Below, one piece after another: positions 1 to 27,719 of a stretch of DNA of 64,000 bases; the stretch's first letter is position 1; each line of letters begins with the position of its first letter. The position numbers and the translations under genes were made by a program. This stretch comes from Acidimicrobiia bacterium (lineage in GTDB: Bacteria > Actinomycetota > Acidimicrobiia > Spongiisociales > ZC4RG35): assembly GCA_035512955.1 (NCBI GenBank), contig DATKCZ010000013.1:305-64304 (forward strand), read 5' to 3'. The notes below the pieces were generated by a model, which saw nothing but the letters and a program-made list of their open reading frames with translations, was not told the DNA's origin and did no database searches.

Positions 1-1
1 G

Positions 2-1708
2 CGCAGCGCCGTCGATGACCTGTTGGGGCCCGAAGAAGGCTTCGACGGGCGGGTCGTCTTCGGGGGTCGTGCCGCTCGGCAGCGGCGTCATCTGCTGCTG
101 CCTGCCCTCCACGCCGTCCAGGATGCCGCCGGCTCGGTGAGCAGGGGCGCACTGGCCTACATCTGTGAGCGGCTCACGGTGCCCCCGGCCGAGGCATACG
201 GTGTGGCCACCTTCTACGCGCTGTTCGACACCGACGGCCCCGGGGGCCCGTCGATCCACGTCTGTGATGACATCGTCTGTGCCCAATACGGGGCCGAGGA
301 TCTGTGCGCCGCCCTCGACGCGTCGGGCACGGTCTATGAGCGGAGCCCCTGTCTCGGTCAGTGTGACCGGGCGCCGGCGGCGATGTTCCACCAACCCGGC
401 ATCGGCTACGGCAATGCCGCGCCGGTCACACCTTCCTCGTTCGGGGCCCCCACCTTCGACGAGCTCCCTCCCGGTCTCGTCAACCAGGACCGGGAAGAAC
501 TGACGCTGCTGCGCCGCATCGGTGTGGTCGATCCCAGCTCCCTCGACGGCTACCTCGAGACCGGAGGGTTCGAGACCCTGGCCAAGGCACGGGCGATGGG
601 GCCGGAGGCGGTCATAGCCGCGTTGAAGACATCGGGGCTCAGGGGTCGTGGCGGAGCCGCATTCCCCATCGGTCTCAAATGGGAGGGTGTCCGTGAGGCC
701 AGGGGTGGCGACAAGTACGTGATCGCCAACGGCGACGAGTCCGAGCCGGGGACTTTCAAGGACCGTCTGCTGATGGAGGGCGATCCGTTCGCGCTGGTCG
801 AGGCGATGGCCCTCTACGGGTACGCCACCGGGGCCGGCAAGGGGTTCATCTACGTCCGCGGGGAGTATCCGACTGCGGAGAAGCGGCTCGAGAACGCCAT
901 CGCCCAGACCGTCGGCGCGGGTCTGATCGGTGACGGGTTCGACCTCGAGGTGCGGAGAGGCGCGGGGGCCTACATCTGTGGCGAGGAGACCGCCTTGTTC
1001 GCCTCCATCGAGGGACATCGCGGCGAGCCCCGGCAGAAGCCGCCGTTCCCCACCCAATCGGGGGTGTTTGGCAAGCCCACCGGCATCAACAACATCGAGA
1101 CGCTGCTCGCCGCTCTCGAAGTGATCGCCCGGGGAGGCGAGGCCTTCGCCGCGGTAGGGACCGAGCAATCGACCGGCCCCAAGCTGTTCTGTGTCTCCGG
1201 GGCCGTGGCCAGGCCCGGTGTCTACGAGGTCCCCTTCGGGACGACGCTCAGGGCTCTTCTCGCCCTCGCCGGTGGGATCAGGGATGGCGGTGATCTGGGT
1301 GCTGTGCTCATGGGCGGGGCGGCCGGTGTCTTCGCCGACCAGTCGGCGCTCGAGGTGCCCCTGACCTTCGAGGACACCAGCGCCGCGGGCACCACGCTGG
1401 GCTCGGGGGCGATCATATTCTTCGATGACCAGACCGATTTCGGGGGGGTGCTGGGCCGCATCGCCCGGTTCTTCAGAGATGAGTCCTGTGGCCAGTGTGT
1501 TCCATGTCGCATCGGCACCGTCCGTCAGGAGGAGGCGCTGGCCCGGCTGCGCGCCCACCGCCCCCTGGGCTCGGTGTCCGAGGAGAGAAGACGTCTCGAC
1601 GATCTGGCGGTGGTGATGACCGATGCCTCGATCTGTGGTCTCGGCCAGACCGCGGCCTCCGCGGTCCAGTCCGCGATGAAGCTAGGGCTCCCAGGAGTGC
1701 CGGCATGA
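2..1708 (+). CDS. NuoE-NuoF fusion flavoprotein (NAD-linked diaphorase, beta-subunit type of NAD-dependent formate dehydrogenase). It is 5'-partial because the frame is open to the window edge.
   Basis: The ORF track gives 23..1708, and the same frame has no stop back to nt 2. It has a NuoE-like 2Fe-2S Cys pattern (HVCDDIVC ... CLGQCDRAP). NuoF signatures are GGAAFPIGLKWE and ESCGQCVPCRIGT. It has an ATGA overlap with the next gene. Confidence 0.9.
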   Translation, partial: RSAVDDLLGPEEGFDGRVVFGGRAARQRRHLLLPALHAVQDAAGSVSRGALAYICERLTVPPAEAYGVATFYALFDTDGPGGPSIHVCDDIVCAQYGAEDLCAALDASGTVYERSPCLGQCDRAPAAMFHQPGIGYGNAAPVTPSSFGAPTFDELPPGLVNQDREELTLLRRIGVVDPSSLDGYLETGGFETLAKARAMGPEAVIAALKTSGLRGRGGAAFPIGLKWEGVREARGGDKYVIANGDESEPGTFKDRLLMEGDPFALVEAMALYGYATGAGKGFIYVRGEYPTAEKRLENAIAQTVGAGLIGDGFDLEVRRGAGAYICGEETALFASIEGHRGEPRQKPPFPTQSGVFGKPTGINNIETLLAALEVIARGGEAFAAVGTEQSTGPKLFCVSGAVARPGVYEVPFGTTLRALLALAGGIRDGGDLGAVLMGGAAGVFADQSALEVPLTFEDTSAAGTTLGSGAIIFFDDQTDFGGVLGRIARFFRDESCGQCVPCRIGTVRQEEALARLRAHRPLGSVSEERRRLDDLAVVMTDASICGLGQTAASAVQSAMKLGLPGVPA

Positions 1709-2670
1709 CCCTCACCGGAGCCGCCGTGACCACTATCACCGCGACGATCGACGGCCAGGAGGTGACCGTCGCCGCAGGGGAAACCATCCTCGAGGCCTGT
1801 CGCCGCTCGGGTGTCGACCTGCCCACCCTCTGTCACGGCCCCACACTGACACCGGCCAATGCATGCCGGGTATGTATGGTCGAGGTCGAGGGATCGCGGG
1901 CCCTGGTCCCCTCCTGCAGCCGGGCCCTGGACGAGGGCATGGTGATCAACACCGGCACCGAGCGCGCCAGACACAGTCGCCGCCTGGTCATGGAGCTCCT
2001 CGGCAGCGCCAGCCAGCTCGACCGGTCCGGTGACCGCGTCGACGCCTGGATGGAGTCTCACGGCGCCGACAGCGCTCGTTTCGGCGCGGCGGAGGCGGAG
2101 ACGCCCCGGAGCAAGCCGGTGCCGGGGCATCATCACCCTCCATCGCTCCGCGAGGCCGCCGGTGTCGCCGAGCCGGCGAAGGTCGAAGACGATCTCTACG
2201 TGCGTGACTACAGCCGGTGCATCCTCTGCTACAAGTGCGTCGACGCCTGCGGGGAACAGCACCAGAACACCTTCGCCATCGCCGTCGCGGGCCGGGGCTT
2301 CGACGCTCGCATCTCCACCGAGTTCGACGTCGCCCTGCCCGGATCGGCGTGTGTTTACTGCGGGAACTGCATCGCGGTGTGCCCCACCGGGGCACTCGAG
2401 GGCAAGATCGCCTGGGACATGAAGGAGAACGGGACCTGGGACGAGTCGACCCAAGAGGTCACCAGGACGGTTTGCTCCTACTGCGGTGTGGGCTGCAACC
2501 TCGACATCCACACCCAGGACGGCCGTATCGTCGATGTGAGCTCCCCACTCGACCACGAGGTGACGCTGGGCAACCTGTGCATAAAGGGCAGGTTCGGGTG
2601 GAGCTATGTCGCCAGTGGGATGGGGACGGAGGCCGGTGAGGGGCTCGGGGGGAGTGCTCCCCCCTCGTGA
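1705..2670 (+). CDS. Fe-S protein equal to the N-terminal part of an FdsA/NuoG-type formate dehydrogenase alpha subunit. It has 2Fe-2S, two ferredoxin-type 4Fe-4S sites and the Mo-enzyme cap 4Fe-4S, but ends before any molybdopterin domain.
   Basis: The ATG at 1705 overlaps the upstream stop, so the longer ORF 1495.. is an overlap artefact. Motifs are TIDGQEVTV..TLCH..CRVCMVEV, CILCYKCVDAC, CVYCGNCIAVCP and CSYCGVGCNL...LCIKGRFGW. The stop comes about 20 codons after the last motif. Confidence 0.85.
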   Translation: MTLTGAAVTTITATIDGQEVTVAAGETILEACRRSGVDLPTLCHGPTLTPANACRVCMVEVEGSRALVPSCSRALDEGMVINTGTERARHSRRLVMELLGSASQLDRSGDRVDAWMESHGADSARFGAAEAETPRSKPVPGHHHPPSLREAAGVAEPAKVEDDLYVRDYSRCILCYKCVDACGEQHQNTFAIAVAGRGFDARISTEFDVALPGSACVYCGNCIAVCPTGALEGKIAWDMKENGTWDESTQEVTRTVCSYCGVGCNLDIHTQDGRIVDVSSPLDHEVTLGNLCIKGRFGWSYVASGMGTEAGEGLGGSAPPS

Positions 2671-3464
2671 GCAACGCCGTCACGCCTCGACGGGTGGTGC
2701 AAGTCAGGGATCAGGTCCGGGCAATGGACGACACCCTGGTGGTCGAGGAACCGCTCGAGATCAGACTCGACGGCACCGCGCTGGCGGTGGTCATGAGGAC
2801 ACCCGGAGATGACGCCGACCTCGTTCTGGGGTTTGCCATCACCGAAGGGATCGTGACCACCCCCGATGCGGTCAAGCGGGTGGTGTCCCTGGGTGGTGGT
2901 CGATGGGACCTGGAGACCGTGGACGGGGTGAGCATCGACCCTGCCCAGTTTCAGCGGAACTTCTACAGCACGAGCTCTTGCGGGGTCTGTGGCAAGGCAT
3001 CGATCGACGCCATCCGCATCACCGGAGCCAAGCCGCCGACGGGCCCGGTGGTACCGGTGGAGATCTTCCTGTCATTGCCTCCCCGGCTGTTGGAGGCCCA
3101 GACCGCATTCCGCTCCACCGGAGGGCTCCACGCCGCCGCTGCTTTCGACTCCTCAGGGGAGATCGTGGCCGTCAGAGAGGACGTGGGCCGTCACAATGCG
3201 GTCGACAAGGTGGTCGGGCATCTCGCCCGGAAGGGCTGGCCGTTGCCGCCCCTGGGTCTGCTGGTCTCCGGCCGGGTCTCTTTCGAGATCACCCAGAAGG
3301 CGGCGGTGGCGGGAATCTCCCTGGTCTGCGGTGTCTCGGCAGCTTCCAGTCTGGCCGTCGAGCTCGCCGAGGAGTTCGAGATGACGGTCATCGGGTTCCT
3401 CCGGGAGGGCGGGTTCACCCTGTACACCGGAGGAGAGCGAGTGGGCGGACTCGAGTCGCGGTGA
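2667..3464 (+). CDS. fdhD: Formate dehydrogenase accessory sulfurtransferase FdhD
   Basis: Motifs are SSCGVCGKASID, GGLHAAAAF and DVGRHNAVDKVVG. The GTG start overlaps the upstream TGA. Confidence 0.9.
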   Translation: MSNAVTPRRVVQVRDQVRAMDDTLVVEEPLEIRLDGTALAVVMRTPGDDADLVLGFAITEGIVTTPDAVKRVVSLGGGRWDLETVDGVSIDPAQFQRNFYSTSSCGVCGKASIDAIRITGAKPPTGPVVPVEIFLSLPPRLLEAQTAFRSTGGLHAAAAFDSSGEIVAVREDVGRHNAVDKVVGHLARKGWPLPPLGLLVSGRVSFEITQKAAVAGISLVCGVSAASSLAVELAEEFEMTVIGFLREGGFTLYTGGERVGGLESR

Positions 3465-3479
3465 AGGCCTGACGCAGGT

Positions 3480-4025
3480 CTAGGGGCCCTCGGATCCGGC
3501 GAGCGCGATCAACTGCGAGATGGTCCGCCAGTTCCGCACCGTCGCCCTGACCCCGAGACGTCGCTCCAGCATCCCCTGATTGAGCTTCGACCGCCCCGAG
3601 CCATTGGGGAAGGCGAGATAGATCTCCCGACCCCGTCTTGTGAAGCGATCCGGCAGATAATCGTGGGCGTCGAGGGCGACATCGACTCCATGGGTGGGAA
3701 CCCGATCGAGAAACGCCACCTGAAGCAGACGCTGATCGAGACCGAGGTCGGAGAACGGGTGAGCCCTTCCCGTCTCGGCCAGTTCGGTGGACGAACGTGT
3801 CACCACCGGGATCTCGAAGCCGAACAGATCGCGAAGCGCCGGCTCCAACATCCCGACGACGCCCTGTTCGTCGAGCGCCGTCTCGAAGACCAGATTGCCC
3901 GACTGGGCATATGTCCTCGGATTGTCGAGCCCCCGTGCCGAGGCGAGGTCGCGAAGCTCGGCCATCGCCACCCTGTTGTGACCACCGACGTTGATCCCGC
4001 GCAACAGGGCGACTCGGATGGTCAA
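3480..4025 (-). CDS. DUF1697 family protein
   Basis: The N-terminus MTIRVALLRGINVGGHNRVAMAELR is typical of DUF1697. It has a 4-nt overlap with the upstream IclR gene. Confidence 0.75.
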   Translation of the reverse strand: MTIRVALLRGINVGGHNRVAMAELRDLASARGLDNPRTYAQSGNLVFETALDEQGVVGMLEPALRDLFGFEIPVVTRSSTELAETGRAHPFSDLGLDQRLLQVAFLDRVPTHGVDVALDAHDYLPDRFTRRGREIYLAFPNGSGRSKLNQGMLERRLGVRATVRNWRTISQLIALAGSEGP

Positions 4026-4765
4026 CGGGAGAGGGCCTCCGACAGGCGTCGGGCGGCGTCCGCCACCGCCTCACCGATCGCCTCCTCCCGGTCGGGCGCC
4101 GGGAATCGGTATGCCGGGCCATGCACGTGCATGGCCGCGGTTATCAGCCCGTTTCTCTCCAGGACCGGCGCTGCCACCGAGTTGATCCCCTCGACGAACT
4201 CCTCATAGACCCAGGCGTAGCCCTTCTCGCGGATCTCAAACAGGCGTTGTCGGACCTGGTCCCTGTCGGTCACGGTGTTGGGGGTCATCCGCACCAGCTC
4301 TCGGCCGAGGTAACGCTCCATCTGCTGCTCGGGCCAGTGAGCCATGATCACCAGGCCCGAGGGGACGAGGTGCATGGGGATGAGCTCCCCGGTCCAGTCC
4401 CGGACCTGAACCGGTTGGGCTGCCTCGGTCTGGTCCACATAGTGGACCTGGTACCCGTCCGGGATGGCGATTCCCGCGGCTTCGCCGGTGAGGGCGGTCA
4501 GCTCATCGAGATAGGGGCGGGAGAAGGCGGTCAGCTGGCCCGGCCCCCCCGCTGCCGAAGACAGTCGTTGCACGATTGGGCCCAGGCGATAGCGACGACC
4601 GTCTTCGTCGCGTTCGACCGCATCCATCTCTTCGAGGGTGGCGAGAAGCCGGGCCACGGTGCTCTTGGGGAGACCGACCCGGCGCGCCATCTCTGAGAGC
4701 CCGGCCGGCGACTGGGCCAGGGCCTCGACGATCTTGATGGCGCGGGCTACCGACTCGACGGCCAT
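4022..4765 (-). CDS. IclR family transcriptional regulator
   Basis: It has an N-terminal wHTH (LSEMARRVGLPKSTVARLLATLEE) and a C-terminal IclR effector-domain length and pattern. Confidence 0.85.
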   Translation of the reverse strand: MAVESVARAIKIVEALAQSPAGLSEMARRVGLPKSTVARLLATLEEMDAVERDEDGRRYRLGPIVQRLSSAAGGPGQLTAFSRPYLDELTALTGEAAGIAIPDGYQVHYVDQTEAAQPVQVRDWTGELIPMHLVPSGLVIMAHWPEQQMERYLGRELVRMTPNTVTDRDQVRQRLFEIREKGYAWVYEEFVEGINSVAAPVLERNGLITAAMHVHGPAYRFPAPDREEAIGEAVADAARRLSEALSR

Positions 4766-4813: not shown

Positions 4814-5680
4814 CTAGCCGAGCGAGGCGAGCATGTCCTGACGCCACTGCTCGGTGGCCTCCACCCGATTGAAGGTGTAGACGTGGAAGCCTTCGATGTT
4901 GGCGGTCGGATCGTCGAGCAGCGGGGCCAGTCCCACCACGAGGTCATCGGGGCTGTACCCGCCCGGGCGCACCAGCTTTCCCGCCAGACCCTTGTTCTTG
5001 GCGAGAAACCGGGCCGACGGCCCCACCCCGATGCGCAGCGACAGCGTGATCAGCTTGCTCATCTCTGCCACGCCGGGGATCCCGACCCACACCCCGAGCC
5101 CGATCCCCGTCTCGCGGAGCGACTCGACCCAGTCACGGATCGACTCGGGGACGAAGCACATCTGGCTGGTGACGTAGGACGCGTACGGGGCCTTCTCCTC
5201 GAGGGCGTTCCGCATGGTGAGGTCGTCGACGATATGATGACCCTCGGGATAGCCGGGCACACCGATCTCGGTCAGCCCATGCCCGATCTGCTCCATCGCG
5301 GTGAGGAGGGCAAGACCGTCGAAGAACTCCCCCTGGGCCTCACCGTCACCACCCACCACGAATGCCTTGTGGATCCCGCCCCGATCCAGCCTGTCGAGGA
5401 TCTTCCCCAACTCCTGCCGACCCGTGGTGAGACGTGCCGAGAGGTGGGGGACGACATCGAAGCTTCTGTGCTTGAGCTCGACGGTCAGGTCGACCGTGGC
5501 CGCCATGCCCTTTCCCGGTGAGGCGGTGACCGACACCGTGGCCCCCTCGGGGAGGAAGTGAGATTGATCCAAGGCGTTCTTGAGCGGGATCAACTCGTAT
5601 TTGGGCCGCTCGAGCAGACGGCGCAGGGCGGCGACATGGGCGCTCTCGAGGTGCCGCAGGTCGAGGGACTTCTGTCTCAT
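4814..5680 (-). CDS. Methylenetetrahydrofolate reductase family protein (MetF-like)
   Basis: The internal ATG at 5680 forms an ATGA overlap with the MttB stop. The N-terminal 54 codons of the 342-aa ORF overlap the upstream gene. It has an MTHFR-like TIM-barrel pattern (YELIPLKN.., VTASPGKG, HLSARL, VVGGDG). Confidence 0.75.
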   Translation of the reverse strand: MRQKSLDLRHLESAHVAALRRLLERPKYELIPLKNALDQSHFLPEGATVSVTASPGKGMAATVDLTVELKHRSFDVVPHLSARLTTGRQELGKILDRLDRGGIHKAFVVGGDGEAQGEFFDGLALLTAMEQIGHGLTEIGVPGYPEGHHIVDDLTMRNALEEKAPYASYVTSQMCFVPESIRDWVESLRETGIGLGVWVGIPGVAEMSKLITLSLRIGVGPSARFLAKNKGLAGKLVRPGGYSPDDLVVGLAPLLDDPTANIEGFHVYTFNRVEATEQWRQDMLASLG

Positions 5681-7200
5681 GACGCATCCGAGTCGGGGAA
5701 CAAGTCCTTCCGCTCCCCGATCCAGGTTGCCAACCTGTGGTCGAGGTCCTCGTCGAGTGGCGGCGGCTGGTAGTCCGAGAGCATCTGGCGCCATCGCTCG
5801 TGGGCGCGGCCGGCGGCATCGCGGCCCCCCTCGCCCTCCCACTGCTCGAAGCTGTTGCTGTCGGAGGTGTCGGAACGCCAGAAGGCCTTCTCGAAGTTGG
5901 CCAGGGTGTGCTCGGCGCCGAGGAAGTGCTGTCCGGGGCCGGTGCTCCTGATCGCCTCCATCGCCTGGCCGTTCTCGGAGAGGTCGACCCCACCGACCAG
6001 CGCTCCGGCCATCCCGGCCATGTCGGCGTCGAGGATGAACTTCTCATAGCCCATCACCAGACCCCCCTCCAGCCAACCGGCGGTGTGTAGTACGAAATTG
6101 GTCCCGGCGGCCAACGTTGGCAAGAAGGTGGCGGCGCTCTCATAGGCGGCCTGGGAGTCGGTCACCTTGGAGGCGGTCAGGTTCCCGCCGCTGCGAAAGG
6201 GCACCCCGAGCCGTCGAGCCAGGGCGGCAACGATCCACAGGACCAGGGCCGGCTCGGGTGTGCCAAAGGTGGGGGCGCCGGACTGCATCGATATCGAGCT
6301 GGCGAAGGACCCGAGCACCACCGGTGCCCCGGGTCTCACGATCTGGGTGAAGGCGATGCCGGCCAGGGCCTCGGCCAGGGTCTGTGCCGCGGTGGCGGCC
6401 ACCGTCACCGGGGCCATCGCCCCGGCGAGGATGAACGGTGTGATCAGGGTGGCCTGGTTGTTCTCCGCGTATACCTTGGCCGACCCCAGCATGGCCCGGT
6501 CCCAGGAGAGTGGTGAGTTGGCGTTGCACAGCGAGAGGATCACCGTGTTCTCCTCGACGAAGTCATCTCCGAAGACGATCCTGGCGATCTCAACGGTGTC
6601 CTCGGCTCGTTCGGGCGCGGTCACCGCGCCCATGAATGGCTTGTCGCTGTGTTTGACGTGGCTGTAGATCATGTCGAGGTGCCTCTTGTTCACCGGCAGG
6701 TCCACCGGCTCACACAGGGTGCCGCCGGCATGGTGGAGCTGGGGTGACAGATAGGTGAGCTTGGCGAAGTTGTGGAAGTCCTCGATGGTGGCATAGCGCC
6801 GCCCCTCCTCCAGGTTGCGGATGAAAGGGGAGCCGTAGGCGGGGGCGAAGACCATGTGCGGGTCTCCGATTTCGACCGATCGCTTCGGGTTGCGGGCATG
6901 CTGGGTGAATCTGGCCGGGGCACCGGCGGCGAGATCCCGACACATGCCCCTGGGGAACCTGACCCTGGAGCCGGCCACCACGGCACCCGCCGAGGCGAAG
7001 ATCTCCACCGCCTCGGGGAAGTCGATGATCTCCACGCCGACTTCCTCGAGGATGGTGTCGGCGTTGTCCTCGATGATGCCCAGACCCTCCTCCCCGAGAA
7101 CCTCGTAAGGGGGGATGGAGCGGGTCAGGTAAGGGAGGTAGGACGCAGCCCCGGATGACCTGGCCGCCCGTCTCGCCTGACGTCCGCGTCGCTCAGCCAT
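5677..7200 (-). CDS. MttB-family (trimethylamine methyltransferase superfamily) methyltransferase, non-pyrrolysine type
   Basis: It matches MttB-like sequence along the full length (ILSLCNANSPLSWD, ITPFILAGAMAPVT, SGAPTFGTPEP, HTAGWLEGGL, GPGQHFLG). There is no in-frame TAG. The ATG at 7200 overlaps the upstream stop by 8 nt. Confidence 0.9.
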   Translation of the reverse strand: MAERRGRQARRAARSSGAASYLPYLTRSIPPYEVLGEEGLGIIEDNADTILEEVGVEIIDFPEAVEIFASAGAVVAGSRVRFPRGMCRDLAAGAPARFTQHARNPKRSVEIGDPHMVFAPAYGSPFIRNLEEGRRYATIEDFHNFAKLTYLSPQLHHAGGTLCEPVDLPVNKRHLDMIYSHVKHSDKPFMGAVTAPERAEDTVEIARIVFGDDFVEENTVILSLCNANSPLSWDRAMLGSAKVYAENNQATLITPFILAGAMAPVTVAATAAQTLAEALAGIAFTQIVRPGAPVVLGSFASSISMQSGAPTFGTPEPALVLWIVAALARRLGVPFRSGGNLTASKVTDSQAAYESAATFLPTLAAGTNFVLHTAGWLEGGLVMGYEKFILDADMAGMAGALVGGVDLSENGQAMEAIRSTGPGQHFLGAEHTLANFEKAFWRSDTSDSNSFEQWEGEGGRDAAGRAHERWRQMLSDYQPPPLDEDLDHRLATWIGERKDLFPDSDAS

Positions 7201-10074: not shown

Positions 10075-10691
10075 GTGGAGAGCCGGTGCCGGGGGGAGAG
10101 TTGCACCAGGGCCGGCTCCATCTCGCCATGACCCACGAGCCGGCGCTCGAAGCGCAGTTTGAGCCGCATGGCCGCCACCCTGGCTGCCTGGGTGAGGGCG
10201 GGGTCATCGACCTGGGCCAGGTGGACGACTCTCTCGTAGTTGCCGAAGTAGTCCTCGAGCAGCTCGGGCCAGCGGTCTAGCCCGAGCCCTTGCCAGATGA
10301 GACGATCGAAGTGCCTGGTCAGGTAGTCGGTGAGATACAGAGTGCCGGGCTCGTCTTCGTGCATGAGGTCGAACGCCTCGATCCCGGCATAGAACTGGTA
10401 ACAGTGCGCACCGGGCAACCGTTCGACCTCGAACTCGTCGAGGACCTCGTCCAACAGACCACCCGTCCCACAGTCCCCATAGGCGACGAAAACGGTGTCG
10501 TGGCCCCTCGCAGCCTCGAGCTTGGCCCGTACCGCGTCAGGGATCTTCGCAGGAGTGTTGTGCAGGATGGCCGGCAGGCATTCCACCCTGATGTTGTGCA
10601 GACCGTTGCGGGAGACGATCGCGAGCAGTTCGCGGGCGAGGGCCCCGCAGCCGATGACGAGAACGGAGGGAGAATCAAGCCGCGCTGCCAC
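10071..10691 (-). CDS. DUF1638 domain protein
   Basis: Motifs are VLVIGCGALARE .. VFVAYGDCGTGG .. GAHCYQF. The start is uncertain: GTG 10691 is preferred, with alternatives ATG 10739 or ORF start 10772. Confidence 0.7.
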   Translation of the reverse strand: MAARLDSPSVLVIGCGALARELLAIVSRNGLHNIRVECLPAILHNTPAKIPDAVRAKLEAARGHDTVFVAYGDCGTGGLLDEVLDEFEVERLPGAHCYQFYAGIEAFDLMHEDEPGTLYLTDYLTRHFDRLIWQGLGLDRWPELLEDYFGNYERVVHLAQVDDPALTQAARVAAMRLKLRFERRLVGHGEMEPALVQLSPRHRLST

Positions 10692-19137: not shown

Positions 19138-20697
19138 TCAGTAGTCGGTCTCGACCCCGCCCTCAGCCCGCCTTCGCTCCACGAACTCCTCCAACTCGGC
19201 TCGAACCGCAGGGTCCATCGGCGGCTCCTCGTAGCTGTCCAAGAAGACGTCGACCAGTTCGATCATCTTCCCCTTGGCCTCGGGCTTGCCGGCCTCTTCC
19301 CAGCTCTCGTAGTTGCGCCAGTCGGAGAGCAGCGGCTGATAGAAGGCGGTGCGGAAGCGCTGTAGCGTGTGGGGCGTGCCGAAGAAGTGGCCGCCGGGAC
19401 CGACGTCGCGCACCGCATCGAGGGCGAGACCGGCCTCGCTGAAGTCGATGGGGTCCATGAACTTCTGCACCATCGCGCACAGGTCTGCATCGAGGATCAT
19501 CTTCTCGAAAGAGGCACGCAGACCCCCTTCCATCCACCCCACCGCATGGAGGATCAAGTGGGCACCGCCCATCACCGCTCCCCACAATGAGAACACCGAC
19601 TCGTACGCCGCCTGAGCATCGAGGGCGTTGGCCGCGTTGACCCCCGAGGATCGATATGGCAGGCCGTACCGCCGGGTCATTTGACCGGTGATCATCGATG
19701 TCTGGATGAACTCGGGGGTCCCGAAGGCCGGCGCCCCGCTCTGCATGTCGACATTGGAGGTGAAACCCCCGTAGATCACGGGGGCCCCGGGCCGGACCAC
19801 CTGGGTGAAGACGATGCCGGCGAGCGCTTCGGCGTTGTGCTGGGCGAGCGCACCAGCCACCGTCACCGGGGCCATCGCCCCGGCGAGAGTGAACGGGGTG
19901 ATGACGATCACCTGGTTGCGCGAGCTGAACTCGATGATGCCCTGGAGCATCGGGTGGTCGTAGCGGAGCGGAGAGCTGGCGTTGATGACGCTGAGTATCG
20001 ATGGTTGCTCGTCGAGAGTCGCATCATCGACCTGACGGGCGATCTTGATCATCTCCAGGGCGTCGGTGTTCCTCTGGGCCCCCAGGCTGTATGCGTGGAT
20101 CACCCGGTCGGACAGAGTCAGCATGTCGTAGAGAGCGTCGAGGTGACGGACCGAGGCATGGATATCCACCGGCTCGACGGGATATCCGCCCCACAGGTGC
20201 ACGGTGTTGATGGTGTGCCCCAAACGGAGCAGTCTCTGGAAGTCTTCGCGGTTCCCGACCCGGCGACCCCCGGCCTCATCACTCACATTGGGCGGGCTGG
20301 ACACTGCGGTGAACGCCACCGAGCTGGCCCCCATGTGGACATTGCGTTCCGGGTTCCTGGCGTGAATCGTGAACTCCGAGGGGGCTGTCGAGATCTTCTC
20401 CTCGATGAAGTCGGGATCGAATCGAACCCGCTCGGAGTCGGGGTCGACCCGGGCACCGGCATCGGCGAGCATCCGGCGCGCCTCGGGGTTCAAGAAGTCC
20501 ATGCCGATCTCGGAGAGGATCTGGAGCGACGTCCGATGGATGGCCTCGATCTCGTCCTCACCGACGAGGTCGACGGGGTCGAATCGTCGGCTGGGCTGCT
20601 TCCACGGAGCCTGTTCGGGGACGACCCGCCCCTCGGGCCGGTCGCCACCCCGTTGCCGGCGGCCCCTGCGTCTCGGCTGTGTCTCGTCCGCCGTCAT
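19138..20697 (-). CDS. MttB-family methyltransferase, non-pyrrolysine, paralogue 2
   Basis: It has the same family blocks as 5677..7200 (ILSVINASSPLRYD, ITPFTLAGAMAPVT, SGAPAFGTPEF, HAVGWMEGGL, GPGGHFFG). There is no in-frame TAG. Confidence 0.9.
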   Translation of the reverse strand: MTADETQPRRRGRRQRGGDRPEGRVVPEQAPWKQPSRRFDPVDLVGEDEIEAIHRTSLQILSEIGMDFLNPEARRMLADAGARVDPDSERVRFDPDFIEEKISTAPSEFTIHARNPERNVHMGASSVAFTAVSSPPNVSDEAGGRRVGNREDFQRLLRLGHTINTVHLWGGYPVEPVDIHASVRHLDALYDMLTLSDRVIHAYSLGAQRNTDALEMIKIARQVDDATLDEQPSILSVINASSPLRYDHPMLQGIIEFSSRNQVIVITPFTLAGAMAPVTVAGALAQHNAEALAGIVFTQVVRPGAPVIYGGFTSNVDMQSGAPAFGTPEFIQTSMITGQMTRRYGLPYRSSGVNAANALDAQAAYESVFSLWGAVMGGAHLILHAVGWMEGGLRASFEKMILDADLCAMVQKFMDPIDFSEAGLALDAVRDVGPGGHFFGTPHTLQRFRTAFYQPLLSDWRNYESWEEAGKPEAKGKMIELVDVFLDSYEEPPMDPAVRAELEEFVERRRAEGGVETDY

Positions 20698-20793
20698 GCG
20701 CTCACCTTCGAAGGGAACCTAACAGTGCACCGCAGGGCCCGCTTTCCGTAGTGTGCCCGGTTGAGAGCAAGAAGAGCTGATGAGGAGAGCGAG

Positions 20794-21567
20794 ATGAACC
20801 GGGGATTCGGCATCGACGCCAGCGTCCCGCTGGATGTGGCCCAGGAGGCGGCCTCGTTGGTCGAGCGGGCCGGTTACGGGTCGTTCTGGGTCAACGGAAG
20901 TCCCCATGATGGCGCGTTGGACATCATCGAAGGCGCCCTGTCCCGGACCGAGCTCGACGTCGGCGTCGGGGTGTTCCCGTTGACTCACATCTCGGCCGAC
21001 GCACTGGTCGCGGAGGTCCGCAGGCGCGAGCTTCCCCAGAAACGGCTTTGGCTCGGCGTCGGCTCCGGCCGGAGACCGGGTGCCCTCGACGAAGTGCGCG
21101 AGGCGGCCCATACCTTTCGGGAGGACCTCGATGTGACCGTGGTCACCGGAGCGGTCGGGCCCAGGATGCTGGCCCTCGCCGGCGAGGTGGCCGACGCGGT
21201 CATCCTGACCTGGTCGTTCGCCACCGAGGCCGAGCGGGCCCGTGGCCTGGTGGCCGATGCTGCGGCCGCGGTAGGCCGTGACACCCCCACCGTGGTGTCC
21301 TTCGTCCGCTGTGCGCTGCTGCCCCAGGCAGAGGAGGCCGTCTCCGAGCGGGCTCGGGTCTATGACGCCATTCCTCACTACCGGGAGGTCTTCGCCCGCC
21401 ACGGCATCACCGCGGCCGACACCGTGGTCACCGGAGGGTCCCGGGCCGAGCTCCTCGAGCGGATCGAAGCCGAGGAGTCGGTGCTCGACCTCTCGGTGAT
21501 CCGCGCCATCCCGGCCGAGAGCACCGTCGAGTCACTGTCGGAGCTGGTCATCGCCTGTGCCCCGTAG
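20794..21567 (+). CDS. Luciferase-like (LLM class) flavin/F420-dependent oxidoreductase
   Basis: The ATG at 20794 follows GAGGAGAG. The protein has an LLM-like TIM-barrel pattern (YGSFWVN, LGVGSG). Confidence 0.6.
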   Translation: MNRGFGIDASVPLDVAQEAASLVERAGYGSFWVNGSPHDGALDIIEGALSRTELDVGVGVFPLTHISADALVAEVRRRELPQKRLWLGVGSGRRPGALDEVREAAHTFREDLDVTVVTGAVGPRMLALAGEVADAVILTWSFATEAERARGLVADAAAAVGRDTPTVVSFVRCALLPQAEEAVSERARVYDAIPHYREVFARHGITAADTVVTGGSRAELLERIEAEESVLDLSVIRAIPAESTVESLSELVIACAP

Positions 21568-21570: not shown

Positions 21571-22008
21571 TCAGGAGGAGAGGCCGAGCCCCGTTCCGGC
21601 GTCGAAGATCACCTCTCGGATGTATGTGGAGTACGAGCGTGACGGGAGGATCAGGTAGGAGGGCACCTCTTCGTGGTCGTCTCTCACCAGTTCGGTGACG
21701 ACACCGGCGAAGAGTGTCCGGGCTGCTGCGCCGTTGGGGAACATCCCCTCACCGAGATCGAGGGCGCACACCCGGTTGATCAGCTCCGCGGCTCGCCGAC
21801 CGGTGAGCCGGAACAGAGCCCGGACGTGGGTCAGTTCGACGGACTCACCACCGGGCCGGTCACCGAGAACCGTCGACTCTCCAGGGCTCACCGACCACAT
21901 CAGATGCTCGCCCGAGCCTCGCGAGGTTCCCGGGCGTATGTCTTCGCCGGCGGAGAAGACCCTCCACTTGGATGTCGAGGAGAGGTCGGCGAAGTCGAGG
22001 TCAGCCAC
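21571..22008 (-). CDS. soxG: Sarcosine oxidase gamma subunit
   Basis: Its position after soxA, its size and its SoxG-like sequence (LTHVRALFRLTG, RTLFAGV) support the call. Confidence 0.75.
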   Translation of the reverse strand: MADLDFADLSSTSKWRVFSAGEDIRPGTSRGSGEHLMWSVSPGESTVLGDRPGGESVELTHVRALFRLTGRRAAELINRVCALDLGEGMFPNGAAARTLFAGVVTELVRDDHEEVPSYLILPSRSYSTYIREVIFDAGTGLGLSS

Positions 22009-24841
22009 GGGCTCTGGTTCCTTCCGGGTCGAAGTGGGCGTGCTCGGCGAGCACTCTGGCCGCGGCCGTCTTCCCGTTGGGAAGCCTGATCTCGATGCGG
22101 TGACCCGGTCGATCCAGGTGAGCCTCGACCTGACCCAGACATATCGAGCGTTGCAGTGTCGGGGACATCCGGCTCGAAGTGATCCGTCCCCGGATCCTCC
22201 CGTCGGAGTCGACGATCTGGCATGCCTCGAGGGGGAGAACCGTCGGGTCCTCGGTCTGAATCGCCACCAGATGGGGGTAGTTCCCGCCCTCGACCTGCCA
22301 GGCGAGCTCGGGCTTGCCGACGAAGTCGTGTTTGTCGAGGCGGATCATCGCATCGGCTCCCATCCCGAACCCTTGGGTCAGCCCGTCGGTGTCCTGTCCG
22401 ACGATGAAGTGGCCCTTCTCCAGGCGAAGGATGCGCTGTGCCTCGACACCGAACGGCCGGACTCCCAGGTCGGAGCCTTTCTCCAGCAGTTGCTCCCAGA
22501 CGCCGAGGCCGTGGCTCGACGGGATGTGGATCTCGTAGGACAGCTCACCGGTGAACCCGATTCGCCAGACGAAACAGTCGGCCACGCCGGCCACGGTGCC
22601 GGTGCGCACCTGCATGTAGCCGAATCGGTCAGAGTCGAGGTCGATGTCGGTGATGCGGCCCACCAGCTCGCGTGAGCGCGGTCCGGCGACATTGATGCTG
22701 GCGTAGCCGTCGGTGACGGCGGTCATCTTCACGTCCCATTCCGGGAAGCCGGTCTGCAGCCACTCATCGAGCCAGTTCCACACCGTTCCCGCCCCGCCCG
22801 ACGTGGTCGACATCATGTAGTGGTCTGGGGCGAGCCGCCCGGTGACGCCGTCGTCGAAGACGACCCCGTCCTCGGCACACATGATCCCGTAGCGAACCCT
22901 GCCGATCTCGAGCTTGGACCATTTGTTGACGTACACGAACTCGAGGAGCTTGGGCACGTCGCTTCCCCTGAGGTCGATCTTGCCGATGGGGCTGACGTCG
23001 ATGATCCCGACGGTCCGGCGGACCGCCCTCACCTCGCCAACCGGGTCGCCATAGTGCTCGGGGCGGATCCACTGGCCAGCAACCAGGGGGATGGCCCCGT
23101 GCTCCTCATGCCACGGTTGCATGGGTGAGTAGCGCACCGGCTCGTACTTGCGCCCGGCGAGCGTGCCCAGCCGGATCGGGGCGTAAGGCGGGCGCCAGGT
23201 GGTGGTGGAGGTCTCGAGGAGGCTGGCGTTGGTCGCCTCACCGTGCACCGCCAACGCGTTGACCGCCTCCAGCTTTCCCTGCACTGGCCCCATTCCCGCG
23301 GTGGTGTAGCGTTTGGCCAACTCCATCGTGTCGTAACCCTCTTTGGCCGCCGCGATGAGGTCTTTCGAGGTGACGTCCTCGGAGAAGTCGACGAATCCGT
23401 GGGTGGAGGAGCGGTACATCTCCGGATGGGGCTGGTGCTCCAGCACCGGGATGTCGCCGGGAGGCGACGGCGGAGGGTCGATGGCGACACCGGCAGGGGC
23501 CGCCTTCTGCCATCGAGCCCTCACGGTGAGGGCCCGACGCGCCGCTTCGGCGCCGGTGGCAGTCCCGTGGGCGATCAACTGATCGGTGGGGCCGTCTCCG
23601 ACGATCCCCCCCGTGGCCATCACATCGTCGGGCAGGTCGGCGGGGACGAAACGGGCGGCACGAGGCAGGTACACCGGACTATCCCCTGCCATGTTGAGCA
23701 GAGCCGTCGGCGAGGTCCAGCCGGTGGCGGTGACCAGCAGGTCGGCCTTCACCCGGTTGCCCCTGGAGTCGAGGACACTGTGCACCTCCTTGGTGCCTCG
23801 CGCCTCGAGGACGGTGCGGCCCTCGCGGGCATCGAGGACCGAGACCACCTCGACCGCTGCCCGCTCCAGGTCGGCCACCGCCGCGTCCCCCGAGGAGTTG
23901 GCCGTGACCACCACGGCCCGGTCCCCAGGTCTGACCGCATAGAGGTTGATGAGCCGGCGCACCGCGGTGGACAGCATCACCCCGGGCAGGTCGTTGCCCT
24001 TGAAGACATAGGGGCGCTCGAGAGTTCCCACCGCCACCACGAGACACTTGACCCGGGCCTTGACCAGACGCTCCTCCACCCCGGGAGCGTCTCGTTGCAC
24101 CACCGACACCCAATTGTGGTCGTAGCGCCCGGTCACCACGGAGTCGGTCATCACTTCGATGGCGCCGGTAGAGCCCACCTGTTCGATCAGGTCGCCGAGG
24201 GTCGCCAGCTCATCGGCTCCGCCCCAACGCAAATGACCCCCTAGCTCTGGCTCCTCCTCGACGAGGATCACCGATGCCCCCGCCTCGGCGGCGGCAATGG
24301 CGGCGGCCATCCCCGCCGGCCCGCCACCAGCCACCAGGACGTCGGGGTGGACGTGGCGATGGTCGAAGCGCCCTGACTGGTGCTCGGCGCTCACCGTGCC
24401 CCCGGCGGCGAACCGTCCCAGCACTTTCTGGTACACCGGCCAGAGCGGGCGAGGGGCCATGAACGTCTTGTAGTAGAAGCCGGGGGAGAGGAACCGGCCG
24501 ACCAGCTTGTTGGATGCCTTCACGTCGAAGTCGAGCGAGGGCCATGCGTTTTGGGCCACCACCACCATCCCCTCGGCCAGCCGCTGATGGGCCGCCCGGA
24601 CGTTGGGGTCGTCACCCACCTGGACGATGGCGTTGGGGTCGTGATAGGTGGCGGTCAACAGCCCCCGGGGGCGGTGATACTTGAAGCTCCGCGAGAGAAC
24701 ACGCACCCCGTTGGCGGCCAGGGCGGAAGCGATGGTGTCTCCGGCCAACCCGCCATACGTCGAGCCGTCCCACTGGAAGCGCACAGCCCGATTGCGGTCG
24801 ATCACCTCTCCCGGCTGGGGCCCGATGCGAAGAGAGCTCAC
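22001..24841 (-). CDS. soxA: Sarcosine oxidase alpha subunit
   Basis: Motifs are FKYHRPRGLL and the NAD/FAD site VLVAGGGPAGMAAA, followed by a C-terminal GcvT-like folate domain. The GTG at 24841 forms a GTGA overlap with soxD. Confidence 0.92.
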   Translation of the reverse strand: MSSLRIGPQPGEVIDRNRAVRFQWDGSTYGGLAGDTIASALAANGVRVLSRSFKYHRPRGLLTATYHDPNAIVQVGDDPNVRAAHQRLAEGMVVVAQNAWPSLDFDVKASNKLVGRFLSPGFYYKTFMAPRPLWPVYQKVLGRFAAGGTVSAEHQSGRFDHRHVHPDVLVAGGGPAGMAAAIAAAEAGASVILVEEEPELGGHLRWGGADELATLGDLIEQVGSTGAIEVMTDSVVTGRYDHNWVSVVQRDAPGVEERLVKARVKCLVVAVGTLERPYVFKGNDLPGVMLSTAVRRLINLYAVRPGDRAVVVTANSSGDAAVADLERAAVEVVSVLDAREGRTVLEARGTKEVHSVLDSRGNRVKADLLVTATGWTSPTALLNMAGDSPVYLPRAARFVPADLPDDVMATGGIVGDGPTDQLIAHGTATGAEAARRALTVRARWQKAAPAGVAIDPPPSPPGDIPVLEHQPHPEMYRSSTHGFVDFSEDVTSKDLIAAAKEGYDTMELAKRYTTAGMGPVQGKLEAVNALAVHGEATNASLLETSTTTWRPPYAPIRLGTLAGRKYEPVRYSPMQPWHEEHGAIPLVAGQWIRPEHYGDPVGEVRAVRRTVGIIDVSPIGKIDLRGSDVPKLLEFVYVNKWSKLEIGRVRYGIMCAEDGVVFDDGVTGRLAPDHYMMSTTSGGAGTVWNWLDEWLQTGFPEWDVKMTAVTDGYASINVAGPRSRELVGRITDIDLDSDRFGYMQVRTGTVAGVADCFVWRIGFTGELSYEIHIPSSHGLGVWEQLLEKGSDLGVRPFGVEAQRILRLEKGHFIVGQDTDGLTQGFGMGADAMIRLDKHDFVGKPELAWQVEGGNYPHLVAIQTEDPTVLPLEACQIVDSDGRIRGRITSSRMSPTLQRSICLGQVEAHLDRPGHRIEIRLPNGKTAAARVLAEHAHFDPEGTRARG

Positions 24842-25098
24842 CGGTTGTCTCCGACGAGGGCGATGCTGCGTATCTCGTTGGTGCTGCGATGTCGCTCCAA
24901 CATCAGGTAGCGCCGGCACCCGGCGAGGTGAAACCAGCGCTCGGACACCCAGCCCGAGACGTTGGCCCTCATGTAGAGGTATCGGCGCCACGTGGCGGGA
25001 TCGGTCTCCCCCACCTGGGGACGGGGACGGACCTCGCCACCGAATGTGAACTCGTCGCTGTTGCGGGGACCGCAGTTGGGGCAGATTATGACCAACAT
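24838..25098 (-). CDS. soxD: Sarcosine oxidase delta subunit
   Basis: It has the MLVIICPNCGPRNSDEFTFGGE zinc-ribbon start typical of SoxD. Confidence 0.9.
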   Translation of the reverse strand: MLVIICPNCGPRNSDEFTFGGEVRPRPQVGETDPATWRRYLYMRANVSGWVSERWFHLAGCRRYLMLERHRSTNEIRSIALVGDNR

Positions 25099-25102
25099 CT
25101 AG

Positions 25103-26359: not shown

Positions 26360-26405
26360 CGGCCTCTTCTCATTTGTGGGGCGACCCTAGATATGCTCGA
26401 CCCTC

Positions 26406-27719
26406 ATGAGCGAGACTCTCGAGTACGACGCGGTCATCATCGGTGCGGGGATCATCGGGGCCAACCTGGGCTTTGAGATGTCGAAGGCGGGATACAGGAC
26501 GCTGAACATAGACAAGCTCCCCGCTGCCGGATACGGGTCCACGGCGAATTCGTGTGCCATCGTCCGCACCCACTACTCGACCTGGTCGGGGGTGGCCATG
26601 GCCTATGAGGGTTTTCATTTCTGGAAGGACTGGGCCAACTATCTGGAAGTCGAGGACGAGCGTGGCGTCGCCGGGTTCGTCCAGTGTGGTGGTGTCTTCG
26701 TCGGCGACGACGAGCGCTACACCAAGAAGGTCCTGCCGTTGTTCGACGAGATCGGGATCGAGTACGAGGTCTGGGACGCCGACGCCCTAGCCGATCGTCT
26801 GCCCGGGATCGACACCGGTGAGCATGCCCCACCCAAGCGACCCGAGGACGACGAGTTCTGGGAGGACCCTCCGCGACAGATCACCAGCGTGGTGCACTCT
26901 CCCATCGCCGGATACATCACCGACCCACAGCTGGCGACTCACAACCTGCAGCGCGCTGCCGAGGCCAAGGGCGGAGAGTTCAGGTTCAACACCGAGGTGA
27001 CCGGCATCAGGGTCGAGGATGGCCGGGTGGCCGGGGTCGAGCTCGCCGACGGCAGCTTGGTGCTCGCCCCGATCGTGGTCAACGTCGCCGGTCCCCACTC
27101 CTTCGTCATCAACGAGATGGCCGGGGTGGCGGGCTCCATGAACATCAAGACCAGGGCGCTGCGTCACGAGGTGCATCACGTCCCCGCGCCCGCCGGCCTC
27201 GACTTCGAGAAGGACGGGATGTTGGTGGGCGACGACGACCTCGGCACCTACTTCCGCCCCGAGGTGGGCAACCACATCCTCGTCGGCAGTCAGGACCCCG
27301 AGTGTGACCCCCAGATCTGGGTCCAGAACCCCGACGAGTTCGAGCGGGCTATCACCGAGGACCAATGGCGGGCCCAGGTCCTCCGCCTGGCCAGGAGGCT
27401 GCCGACCCTGGGAGTCCCCAACGAGAAGAAGGGTGTCGTCGACCTCTACGACGTGAGCGACGATTGGATCCCGATCTACGACAAGACCGACCTCCCCGGC
27501 TTCTACGTGGCGATTGGCACCAGTGGCAACCAGTTCAAGAACTCACACATCGCCGCGTACTGTCTGACCCGGCTGATCCAGGCCGTCGAGGCGGGGCACG
27601 ACCACGATGCCGACCCGGTGAAGTTGAAAATGCCCTACACCGGTCTGGAGATGGACATGGGGGTGTTCAGCAGGAACCGGGAGATCAACGAAGCCTCTTC
27701 TTTCAGCGTCCTCGGCTGA
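26406..27719 (+). CDS. FAD-dependent oxidoreductase (DAO/amine oxidase-like family)
   Basis: It has the YDAVIIGAGIIGANLGFEM Rossmann motif. It is divergent from soxB with only a 46-nt spacer. Confidence 0.8.
   Translation: MSETLEYDAVIIGAGIIGANLGFEMSKAGYRTLNIDKLPAAGYGSTANSCAIVRTHYSTWSGVAMAYEGFHFWKDWANYLEVEDERGVAGFVQCGGVFVGDDERYTKKVLPLFDEIGIEYEVWDADALADRLPGIDTGEHAPPKRPEDDEFWEDPPRQITSVVHSPIAGYITDPQLATHNLQRAAEAKGGEFRFNTEVTGIRVEDGRVAGVELADGSLVLAPIVVNVAGPHSFVINEMAGVAGSMNIKTRALRHEVHHVPAPAGLDFEKDGMLVGDDDLGTYFRPEVGNHILVGSQDPECDPQIWVQNPDEFERAITEDQWRAQVLRLARRLPTLGVPNEKKGVVDLYDVSDDWIPIYDKTDLPGFYVAIGTSGNQFKNSHIAAYCLTRLIQAVEAGHDHDADPVKLKMPYTGLEMDMGVFSRNREINEASSFSVLG

Follow-up and report, generated by a model that had tools for sequence, protein, structure and literature searches.

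The window considered here is a 64,000-nucleotide stretch of contig DATKCZ010000013.1 from an Acidimicrobiia bacterium (assembly GCA_035512955.1). Its first 27,719 nucleotides carry a candidate pathway for the cobalamin-dependent demethylation of glycine betaine: MttB-superfamily methyltransferases with a corrinoid protein, flavin-dependent demethylases, and enzymes of tetrahydrofolate (THF)-linked one-carbon (C1) oxidation. Real genes were distinguished from spurious open reading frames (ORFs) by codon-position GC content, and families were then assigned with Pfam and NCBIfam. The components listed below have high GC3, GC1 greater than GC2 and strong family matches, and are real genes. Loci on other contigs are designated L followed by a number.

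2..1708 (+), FdsG-FdsB-like fusion (NuoE/NuoF-type NAD+/FMN/Fe-S subunit; PF01257, PF01512, PF10531, PF10589); the 5' end lies beyond the window, and the full-length protein on L001 is 582 aa
1705..2670 (+), FdsA N-terminal Fe-S protein (2Fe-2S, 4Fe-4S and Molybdop_Fe4S4; PF13510, PF22117, PF12838, PF04879), without a molybdopterin domain
2724..3464 (+), FdhD, sulfur-carrier and maturation factor for formate dehydrogenase (PF02634, 217 bits)
3480..4025 (-), DUF1697 protein (PF08002 on L001), last gene of the mtg operon, overlapping iclR by 4 nt
4022..4765 (-), IclR-family transcriptional regulator (PF09339 and PF01614)
4814..5680 (-), MetF2-like enzyme of methylenetetrahydrofolate reductase (MTHFR) fold (PF02219), overlapping the MttB1 gene by 4 nt
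5677..7200 (-), MttB1, non-pyrrolysine MttB-superfamily quaternary-amine:corrinoid methyltransferase (PF06253, 718 bits)
7193..9181 (-), RACo-type ATP-dependent reductive activator of corrinoid protein, with a 2Fe-2S domain (PF00111, PF17650, PF17651, PF14574)
9178..10074 (-), methylcorrinoid:tetrahydrofolate methyltransferase, MtgA/MtgD-type, pterin-binding (PF00809; NF005719, 355.7 bits, cutoff 259)
10071..10691 (-), DUF1638 protein (PF07796), accessory of corrinoid reactivation in split MetH/Mtg systems
10675..11367 (-), MtgC-like corrinoid (B12-binding) protein (PF02607 and PF02310)
11598..12356 (+), PhnD-like solute-binding-fold protein (PF12974)
12360..12680 (-), PF13769 ('Virulence_fact') protein of 106 aa, by Pfam match
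12684..14453 (-), formate-tetrahydrofolate ligase, Fhs (PF01268, 831 bits)
14609..17002 (+), DMGDH/SARDH-family flavoenzyme, an FAD amine dehydrogenase fused to a GcvT-type THF domain (PF01266, PF16350, PF01571, PF08669)
19138..20697 (-), MttB2, second non-pyrrolysine MttB-superfamily methyltransferase (PF06253, 658 bits)
20761..21567 (+), F420-type luciferase-like (LLM) oxidoreductase (PF00296)
21571..22008 (-), soxG, sarcosine oxidase gamma subunit (TIGR01375, 43 bits), overlapping soxA by 8 nt
22001..24841 (-), soxA, sarcosine oxidase alpha subunit with a THF-binding GcvT domain (PF13510, PF17806, PF01571, PF08669; TIGR01372, 850 bits)
24838..25098 (-), soxD, sarcosine oxidase delta subunit, an 86-aa ORF beginning MLVIICPNCG whose orthologues carry PF04267
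25103..26359 (-), soxB, sarcosine oxidase beta subunit, catalytic flavoprotein (PF01266; TIGR01373, 508 bits)
26406..27719 (+), DAO-family FAD oxidoreductase (PF01266), divergent from soxB

An initial annotation, made from the letters alone, had listed most of these components, and searches with Pfam and NCBIfam together with codon-position GC find all that it listed where it placed them, with soxD now at 24838-25098. Its DMGDH-family gene, given as 14579-17002, is a real gene but is called here at 14609-17002. The MttB operon was recognised correctly, while the second MttB-family gene, MttB2 (19138-20697), was overlooked.

Eight minus-strand genes form one operon in the order mtgC, DUF1638, mtgA, RACo, MttB1, metF2, iclR and DUF1697. 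Start and stop codons overlap through mtgC-DUF1638-mtgA-RACo-MttB1-metF2, and again through soxB-soxD-soxA-soxG, where 4-nt gaps or 4-8-nt overlaps indicate a single operon. The soxD gene had no Pfam match in the first scan because its frame differs from that of the long soxA ORF. The fhs and PF13769 genes, on the minus strand, are divergent from the DMGDH-family gene. The GC content of the window is 0.61-0.69 throughout; because it is uniform, the locus is a gene cluster and not the compositionally distinct 'island' of the initial annotation. For the key proteins, the nearest relatives all come from metagenome-assembled genomes (MAGs) of Acidimicrobiia (Actinomycetota). MttB2 is 100% identical to P0121, from an NCBI Acidimicrobiia MAG contig, and MttB1 is 99% identical to P0001, which is encoded on near-identical contigs from ENA and JGI; genes called independently on these have the same boundaries as in the window.

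Conserved gene order and the two MttB paralogues

The entire cluster order is kept in two independent Acidimicrobiia MAG contigs, ENA k141_131135 and NCBI GCA_024638655.1, as seen in their Pfam-annotated neighbourhoods; the MttB proteins of both are 73-80% identical to those of the window. This is the outcome of the synteny comparison in related genomes that the initial annotation had proposed. The left part of the conserved order is DAO / soxBDAG, MttB2, DMGDH / fhs-PF13769 / PhnD-like, followed in the relatives, but not in the window, by electron-transfer flavoprotein (ETF)-alpha/beta and a second DMGDH-family paralogue. The right part is mtgC-DUF1638-mtgA-RACo-MttB1-metF2-iclR, (MFS), fdhD-fdsA(N)-fdsGB-fdhA(Sec) and a Zn-dependent alcohol dehydrogenase (Zn-ADH).

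The neighbourhoods of each MttB paralogue were surveyed separately, in 80 loci of species-representative genomes anchored on MttB1 and in 80 loci of metagenome contigs anchored on MttB2. All cluster proteins were scored against every locus by tblastn, and loci of at least 8 kb were counted. A corrinoid core was defined as at least three of RACo, MtgA, DUF1638, MtgC and PF13769; SoxB and the DMGDH orthologue were each required at 40% or more. Because the metagenome loci may include partly redundant populations, the counts below are not counts of independent events.

MttB1 orthologue loci (n = 70): corrinoid core in 41, SoxB in 8, DMGDH orthologue in 0
MttB2 orthologue loci (n = 32): corrinoid core in 3, SoxB in 20, DMGDH orthologue in 19 (in 15 of them immediately downstream, on the same strand)

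Loci in which MttB1 is accompanied by a corrinoid core are from Acidimicrobiia, Chloroflexota, Gaiellales and Gamma- and Betaproteobacteria, and the eight with SoxB are all proteobacterial (Woeseia, Steroidobacteraceae, Comamonadaceae and Halieaceae). In L109 and L125 the sole MttB beside DMGDH, sox and MtgC-DUF1638-PF13769-MtgA is of MttB2 type, and L117 and L131 have RACo-MetF2-Fhs in addition. Chloroflexota, Gaiellales and Proteobacteria have the sub-modules in new combinations, and the gene order differs in other phyla.

Co-location by coincidence would mean that sox and DMGDH serve sarcosine or creatine-type substrates, that formate dehydrogenase (FDH) and Fhs serve general C1 metabolism, and that the MttB operon is unrelated to either. 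Unrelated variable genes are indeed interspersed (a Septum_form protein, a methyltransferase-like ORF and the LLM gene), and L167 keeps only DAO / soxBDAG-MttB2, followed by insertion sequence (IS) elements. However, independent MAG contigs keep the gene order in full and the same families re-associate in other phyla. Coincidence is therefore very unlikely, and the conservation argues for functional coupling beyond chance co-location.

The MttB1 and MttB2 ORFs are uninterrupted, with no in-frame TAG. The two proteins are 40% identical to one another, and MttB2 is encoded between the DMGDH and sox genes. MttB1 scores 686 bits against 4yyc, a putative trimethylamine methyltransferase from Sinorhizobium meliloti, and 423 bits against Desulfitobacterium hafniense MtgB. 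The proteobacterial 4yyc is the closest solved relative of MttB1; the two align end to end and have a common Y/R/H/G plus Trp352 pocket. No published biochemical function for 4yyc was found in the sources consulted. In D. hafniense MtgB, betaine is contacted by Y97, R312, H348 and F356; R312 and H348 are kept in all known members that act on acidic quaternary amines, and the aromatic pair is substrate-specific and not so kept (PMC13080624). The residues at these four positions are as follows.

MttB1: Y/R/H/G, 44% identity to MtgB
S. meliloti 4yyc: Y/R/H/G, 45% identity to MtgB
MttB2: S/R/H/G, 35% identity to MtgB

MttB1, MttB2 and 4yyc all have Trp at position 352, four residues before the F356 position. 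The carboxylate-binding R312 and H348 are kept in both paralogues, F356 is replaced by Gly in both, and Y97 is lost in MttB2, which is left without either aromatic betaine-contact residue of the D. hafniense enzyme. Because neither MttB has all four contact residues, other acidic quaternary amines are possible substrates. The sequences slightly favour MttB1 as a betaine enzyme; the neighbourhood, through the tight mttB2-dmgdh pair, favours MttB2.

These contrasts raise the alternative that the cluster serves several methylated amines, one MttB (most likely MttB2, with DMGDH) acting on betaine and MttB1 acting on another quaternary amine, such as proline betaine, carnitine, gamma-butyrobetaine or choline, through the same MtgC/MtgA/RACo core. 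The divergence of the paralogues (40% identity, with a difference at the Y97 position), the different conserved neighbourhoods of their orthologues, and the generality of R312/H348 for acidic quaternary amines beside a substrate-specific aromatic pair are consistent with it. Several MttB paralogues are run on one corrinoid core in Eubacterium limosum and Ruegeria pomeroyi (PMC12478193). Against it, MttB1 is the nearer of the two to bona fide MtgB (44% versus 35%) and has three of the four contact residues. The MttB1 operon is divergent from a dimethylglycine oxidase (DMGO)-like gene and ETF genes in relatives, and MttB1 orthologues adjoin sox in several Proteobacteria, so MttB1 is also tied to dimethylglycine/sarcosine catabolism. 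Both R. pomeroyi paralogues, moreover, are induced by betaine (PMC12478193). We regard a division of substrates between the paralogues as plausible, if not the reading we prefer; it is a refinement of glycine betaine demethylation by this cluster and does not contradict it.

A more far-reaching reading, which is tentative and on balance doubtful, joins these observations. The 'MtgB' of aerobes would comprise two functionally distinct clades, MttB2-type proteins being the true betaine enzymes with a differently built pocket and MttB1-type proteins acting on another quaternary amine, and aerobic corrinoid methyltransferase systems would need PF13769 as an accessory subunit.

The MtgC-like protein has the His-on motif DxHxxG (DIHDIG, at residue 112), and in NCBIfam it matches best the MtgC model, that of a corrinoid protein specific for glycine betaine (214 bits, under cutoff). 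The pterin methyltransferase exceeds the cutoff of the NCBIfam model for methyl-THF:corrinoid methyltransferases (NF005719). The activator matches AcsV (368 bits) better than RamA (116 bits) in NCBIfam, and its 2Fe-2S cysteines are Cys42, Cys48, Cys51 and Cys92. DUF1638 has been named as a component of the aerobic Mtg system (PMC12478193). The IclR protein probably regulates the mtg operon, and iclR adjoins metF2 in Actinomycetota and Chloroflexota loci as well. The DUF1697 gene ends the operon in the lineage of the window only; an MFS gene is in its place in L168 and L169.

Flavin demethylases and proposed one-carbon oxidation

The DMGDH-family enzyme scores 517 bits against rat/human DMGDH and has the architecture DAO, FAO_M, GCV_T, GCV_T_C. 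SoxB scores 384-390 bits against the solved heterotetrameric sarcosine oxidases 2gag_B and 1vrq_B. The SoxBDAG enzymes of Corynebacterium sp. U-96 (1vrq) and Stenotrophomonas maltophilia (2gag) have the same four subunits in the same order, with Fer2_4, SO_alpha_A3 and GcvT domains in SoxA. SoxG is short (145 aa) and divergent. Here sox is linked to an MttB gene, in contrast to the classical actinobacterial clusters, including those of Arthrobacter for dimethylglycine and sarcosine, for which no first betaine step was known. Solved amine oxidases match the DAO-family protein only distantly (at most 37 bits); its gene is a conserved cluster-boundary gene in L094 and L165-L167.

In relatives the cluster contains ETF genes. 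ETF-alpha/beta and a dimethylglycine-oxidase-like paralogue lie between the PhnD-like gene and mtgC (L168:1337-5653 and L169:1428-5680), divergent from the mtgC-MttB1 operon. This extra DMGDH-family paralogue is nearer to Arthrobacter dimethylglycine oxidase (527 bits to 1pj5). In the window the corresponding interval, 11368-11597, is just a 230-bp spacer.

The LLM oxidoreductase gene is a lineage-specific insert between soxG and MttB2, seen in close relatives only; its NCBIfam matches to F420-LLM/Mer-like families are weak. Two relatives have an M24-family protein between soxG and MttB2 (L165:8653-9897 and L166:8654-9943), and that of L166 strongly resembles the dimethylsulfoniopropionate (DMSP) lyase DddP (476 bits, NCBIfam cutoff 600).

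The best solved relative of MetF2 is S6MTHFR (7xg9), at 99 bits and about 30% identity, versus about 25 bits for canonical MetF. S6MTHFR is the type-4 MTHFR of Sphingobium lignivorans SYK-6, which oxidises methyl-THF (CH3-THF), does not use NADH and partners THF-dependent demethylases (PMC11868366). The same logic, an MTHFR paralogue beside a THF-dependent demethylase to oxidise CH3-THF, is seen here. MetF2 keeps the catalytic Glu, Asp and Gln and three of the eight type-4 signature residues (P49, Y267 and F269). Membership in the type-4 family was rejected on this signature-residue test; MetF2 is related to that family but is no clean member of it, and the direction from CH3-THF to methylene-THF (CH2-THF) is one we infer.

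Two other functions of the methyl-transfer genes were weighed. The main role of the corrinoid module could be that of a split cobalamin-dependent methionine synthase, as in Phaeobacter inhibens, with its proximity to sox and DMGDH reflecting common C1 metabolism rather than betaine catabolism. Neither the scanned ORFs of the window nor the annotated loci of relatives contained an MtgE/PF02574 gene. The operon couples the translation of MttB and of a catabolic-type MetF2, and it has fhs and FDH genes on its flanks. With MttB and a catabolic-type MetF2 in the operon and no mtgE nearby, a role restricted to methionine synthesis is unlikely; a dual role of the corrinoid core in methionine synthesis and betaine demethylation is possible.

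Alternatively, FDH, Fhs, MTHFR, the methyl-THF:corrinoid methyltransferase and RACo could form a reductive, Wood-Ljungdahl-type methyl branch for C1 assimilation. The best NCBIfam names are of acetogen type (AcsV-like activator, 368 bits; methyl-THF:corrinoid/Fe-S protein methyltransferase, 356 bits). But the corrinoid protein is of MtgC/MtbC type, the cluster includes an oxygen-using sarcosine oxidase, and MetF2 is nearest to an oxidising MTHFR. A search for carbon monoxide dehydrogenase/acetyl-CoA synthase (CODH/ACS) or the corrinoid/Fe-S protein CFeSP (AcsABCD) found neither in the window or in the annotated loci of relatives, and this branch was rejected. We consider it scarcely credible for this cluster.

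Formate oxidation is represented by the genes at the left edge of the window. Directly upstream of window position 1, at L001:17242-19167 (-), lies the catalytic molybdopterin subunit of FDH, an ORF that covers Fdh-alpha model positions 141-672 (545 bits). The coding region of the subunit consists of 78 codons, one in-frame TGA, and then about 520-550 codons. The TGA is at the active-site selenocysteine (Sec)/Cys position, in the motif DSCNRT-TGA-HAPSVAGL. Relatives keep the TGA together with a stem-loop downstream of it, and the arrangement is also present in L002, L168 and L169. The FdsA N-terminal protein in the window matches NCBIfam Fdh-alpha model positions 1-50 only and is 308-321 aa in all relatives. 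With the upstream TGA-containing molybdopterin-domain ORF, the FDH is complete and split, and appears to be of selenocysteine type. The gene order is molybdopterin domain, FdsGB fusion, Fe-S N-terminal part, FdhD. The FDH-type module with FdhD of the initial annotation is in this way strengthened as well as confirmed.

NAD-dependent FDHs of the FdsGBACD type (Rhodobacter capsulatus and Cupriavidus necator) comprise NuoE/NuoF-like and NuoG-like Fe-S modules, a molybdopterin catalytic domain and FdhD. In contrast to these, FdsG and FdsB are fused here, FdsA is split into a molybdopterin-domain protein (encoded first) and an Fe-S N-terminal protein, and the active-site residue is TGA-encoded (selenocysteine) and not Cys. 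From its sequence, this Acidimicrobiia enzyme seems to be an NAD-type FDH that contains selenocysteine and has an atypical, split architecture.

A Zn-dependent class-III-like alcohol dehydrogenase is a conserved neighbour of fdhA (L168:20224-21294, minus strand), with a partial copy at L001:20562-21524. It resembles N,N-dimethyl-4-nitrosoaniline (NDMA)-dependent alcohol dehydrogenase (316 bits) and mycothiol-dependent formaldehyde dehydrogenase (298 bits), both under the cutoffs. A role as formaldehyde-detoxifying partner of the flavin demethylases is plausible.

Proposed pathway and its precedents

The gene content, domain architectures, operon junctions, conserved motifs and conserved synteny suggest that this is likely an aerobic Acidimicrobiia catabolic cluster for the full demethylation of glycine betaine, possibly of further betaines, by a cobalamin-dependent route. 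MttB2 and/or MttB1 would transfer one N-methyl group from the quaternary amine to the Co(I) form of the corrinoid protein MtgC, and the pterin-binding methyltransferase would pass it from the corrinoid to THF. RACo and DUF1638, perhaps with PF13769, would keep the corrinoid reduced. The MetF2-like enzyme would oxidise CH3-THF to CH2-THF. The second and third methyl groups would be removed by the DMGDH-family enzyme and SoxBDAG and delivered as CH2-THF. After a FolD step encoded elsewhere, Fhs would release formate, and the split selenocysteine NAD-linked FdsABG-type FDH, whose catalytic subunit lies just upstream of the window, would oxidise it to CO2. The identity of the substrate, the direction of flux, the regulation and the role of each MttB paralogue are what we infer from these genes.

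Precedent comes from R. pomeroyi. On glycine betaine it induces two PF06253 proteins (SPO2108 and SPO2134), MtgC and the pterin protein MtgD (Mausz et al., PNAS 2025, PMC12478193), together with MetF2, RamA, DUF1638, proteins of dimethylglycine/sarcosine demethylation and THF-linked C1 oxidation (PMC12478193). Its mtgC and mtgD knockouts do not grow on betaine; only these two genes, and no MttB gene, were knocked out (PMC12478193). In other marine Alpha-, Gamma- and Deltaproteobacteria the betaine genes are often co-located, and Actinomycetota account for about 5% of oceanic mtgC reads (PMC12478193). For Phaeobacter, a study from 2026 takes mttB and then sox to be the accepted route of betaine breakdown (PMC13381886).

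The cluster of the window and the R. pomeroyi Mtg system have in common PF06253 enzymes, a separate corrinoid protein, a pterin-binding methyltransferase, a reductive activase, DUF1638 and a MetF paralogue. Both also have two MttB paralogues, and downstream dimethylglycine/sarcosine demethylation with THF-linked C1 oxidation. They differ in that the R. pomeroyi genes are scattered, whereas here almost all are in one cluster of about 30 kb, in Actinomycetota and mostly in soil-type metagenomes. The activator here is RACo/AcsV-like with a 2Fe-2S domain, and a Sec-type split FDH, Fhs, IclR and the PF13769 protein belong to the conserved cluster. No mtgE is nearby, so the link to methionine synthase is not visible here.

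The anaerobic MtgB-MtgC-MtgA system of D. hafniense, which transfers methyl groups from glycine betaine to THF (2qne/9yce; Ticak 2014; Picking 2026, PMC13080624), has the same three-component chemistry and the same protein families. In contrast to D. hafniense, the organism here is probably aerobic, and the methyl group would end as CO2 instead of serving anaerobic respiration or acetogenesis.

The chemistry outlined in the initial annotation, from MttB and the corrinoid to THF, then DMGDH and Sox, with C1 units leaving as formate/CO2, is supported by comparative genomics and by the R. pomeroyi precedent (PMC12478193). Its suggestion that this route replaces BHMT or GbcAB describes a real route, but one already published for marine bacteria in 2025 and so less novel than implied; the outline is correct and the pathway is known. 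Our literature search found no paper analysing such clusters in Acidimicrobiia. The present case stands apart by its phylum and habitat, by near-complete clustering that takes in fhs and a split Sec-FDH, by the lack of a nearby mtgE, by two MttB paralogues with contrasting neighbourhoods, and by conserved but unstudied PF13769 and signal-less PhnD-like proteins.

Several observations weigh against this assignment. Glycine betaine is a presumed substrate, and the full MtgB contact set is present in neither paralogue, MttB1 keeping three of four residues and MttB2 two of four. MetF2 differs from the type-4 enzymes at five signature residues (L48 to S, R78 to L, F215 to L, C219 to I and P268 to T). 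SoxA (850 versus 1164 bits), SoxB (508 versus 529) and SoxG (43 versus 144) are all under the NCBIfam trusted cutoffs. Queries for ETF-alpha/beta taken from L169 had no tblastn match anywhere in the 64-kb window, and FolD, BCCT and OpuA had no match among the ORFs scanned across it, in agreement with the initial annotation, which saw neither a transporter nor FolD. The host is uncultured and known from metagenome assemblies alone, and the possible redundancy of the metagenome loci bears on the synteny counts.

If correct, the assignment extends B12-dependent betaine catabolism from marine Proteobacteria to uncultured, mostly soil-derived Acidimicrobiia. A single conserved cluster leading from betaine to CO2 would be a convenient template for annotating betaine turnover and the demand for B12 and selenium in soil metagenomes. 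The contrasting MttB neighbourhoods give a concrete hypothesis on which clade is betaine-specific, and the conserved, uncharacterised PF13769 protein and the split selenocysteine FDH are flagged as parts of the module.

Accessory proteins, promoters and flanking genes

The PF13769 protein is present in most corrinoid-core loci, across phyla. Its gene follows fhs in the window, is between DUF1638 and mtgA elsewhere, and is inside the operon in L103, L109 and L125. No domain fusions were found among its 120 best homologues, its AlphaFold2 (AF2) model (pLDDT 88) had no Foldseek match in the PDB, and a literature search by accession found nothing on the family. The N-terminus of the PhnD-like protein is not hydrophobic and has no signal peptide; the gene is beside fhs-PF13769 in L165 and L166 (73% identity). 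It may be a cytoplasmic ligand-binding protein and not a transporter component.

The spacer between fhs and the DMGDH-family gene (14482-14527) contains CAYTTGTG half-sites, CATTTGTG, N9 and GTACAAGTG, followed 19 nt on by GGCACAAGTG. The spacer between soxB and the DAO-family gene has one such half-site (26371-26378). Three of the four matches in the window are in these two divergent promoter regions. As a shared operator the motif is not significant, with 4 matches window-wide versus 1.7 expected and 9 of 100 shuffles reaching 4; an operator function is possible, as a weak lead. Rfam and tRNA scans of the window, in which B12, THF and glycine riboswitches and tRNA-Sec were sought, returned no Rfam family and no tRNA.

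Between the DMGDH-family gene and MttB2, at 18133-18774 (+), is a class-I methyltransferase-like ORF with a weak match to CpaM, the corrinoid protein-associated methyltransferase (22 bits, E = 7e-5); it is present in near-identical contigs only. A few kb past the cluster, at 30299-31501 (+), is a gene for a rhodanese plus ThiF (MoeZ-like) protein, and at 33634-35937 (-) one for a second molybdopterin oxidoreductase. The best match of the latter is Fdh-alpha (223 bits, far under the cutoff), and it shares 24-27% identity with the catalytic subunit of the FDH. A link of these two proteins to molybdenum cofactor or sulfur metabolism is possible.

The genes from 36779 to 63600 are housekeeping or transport genes unrelated to the cluster. 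They include a Znu-type metal ABC system (36779-39866); two acyl-CoA dehydrogenases (41771-44093); an Opp/Dpp-type ABC transporter with two M20 peptidases (44204-52798); and genes for a GNAT/SCP2 protein, a sugar transferase, two LytR-CpsA-Psr proteins, a DUF885 protein and a histidine kinase.

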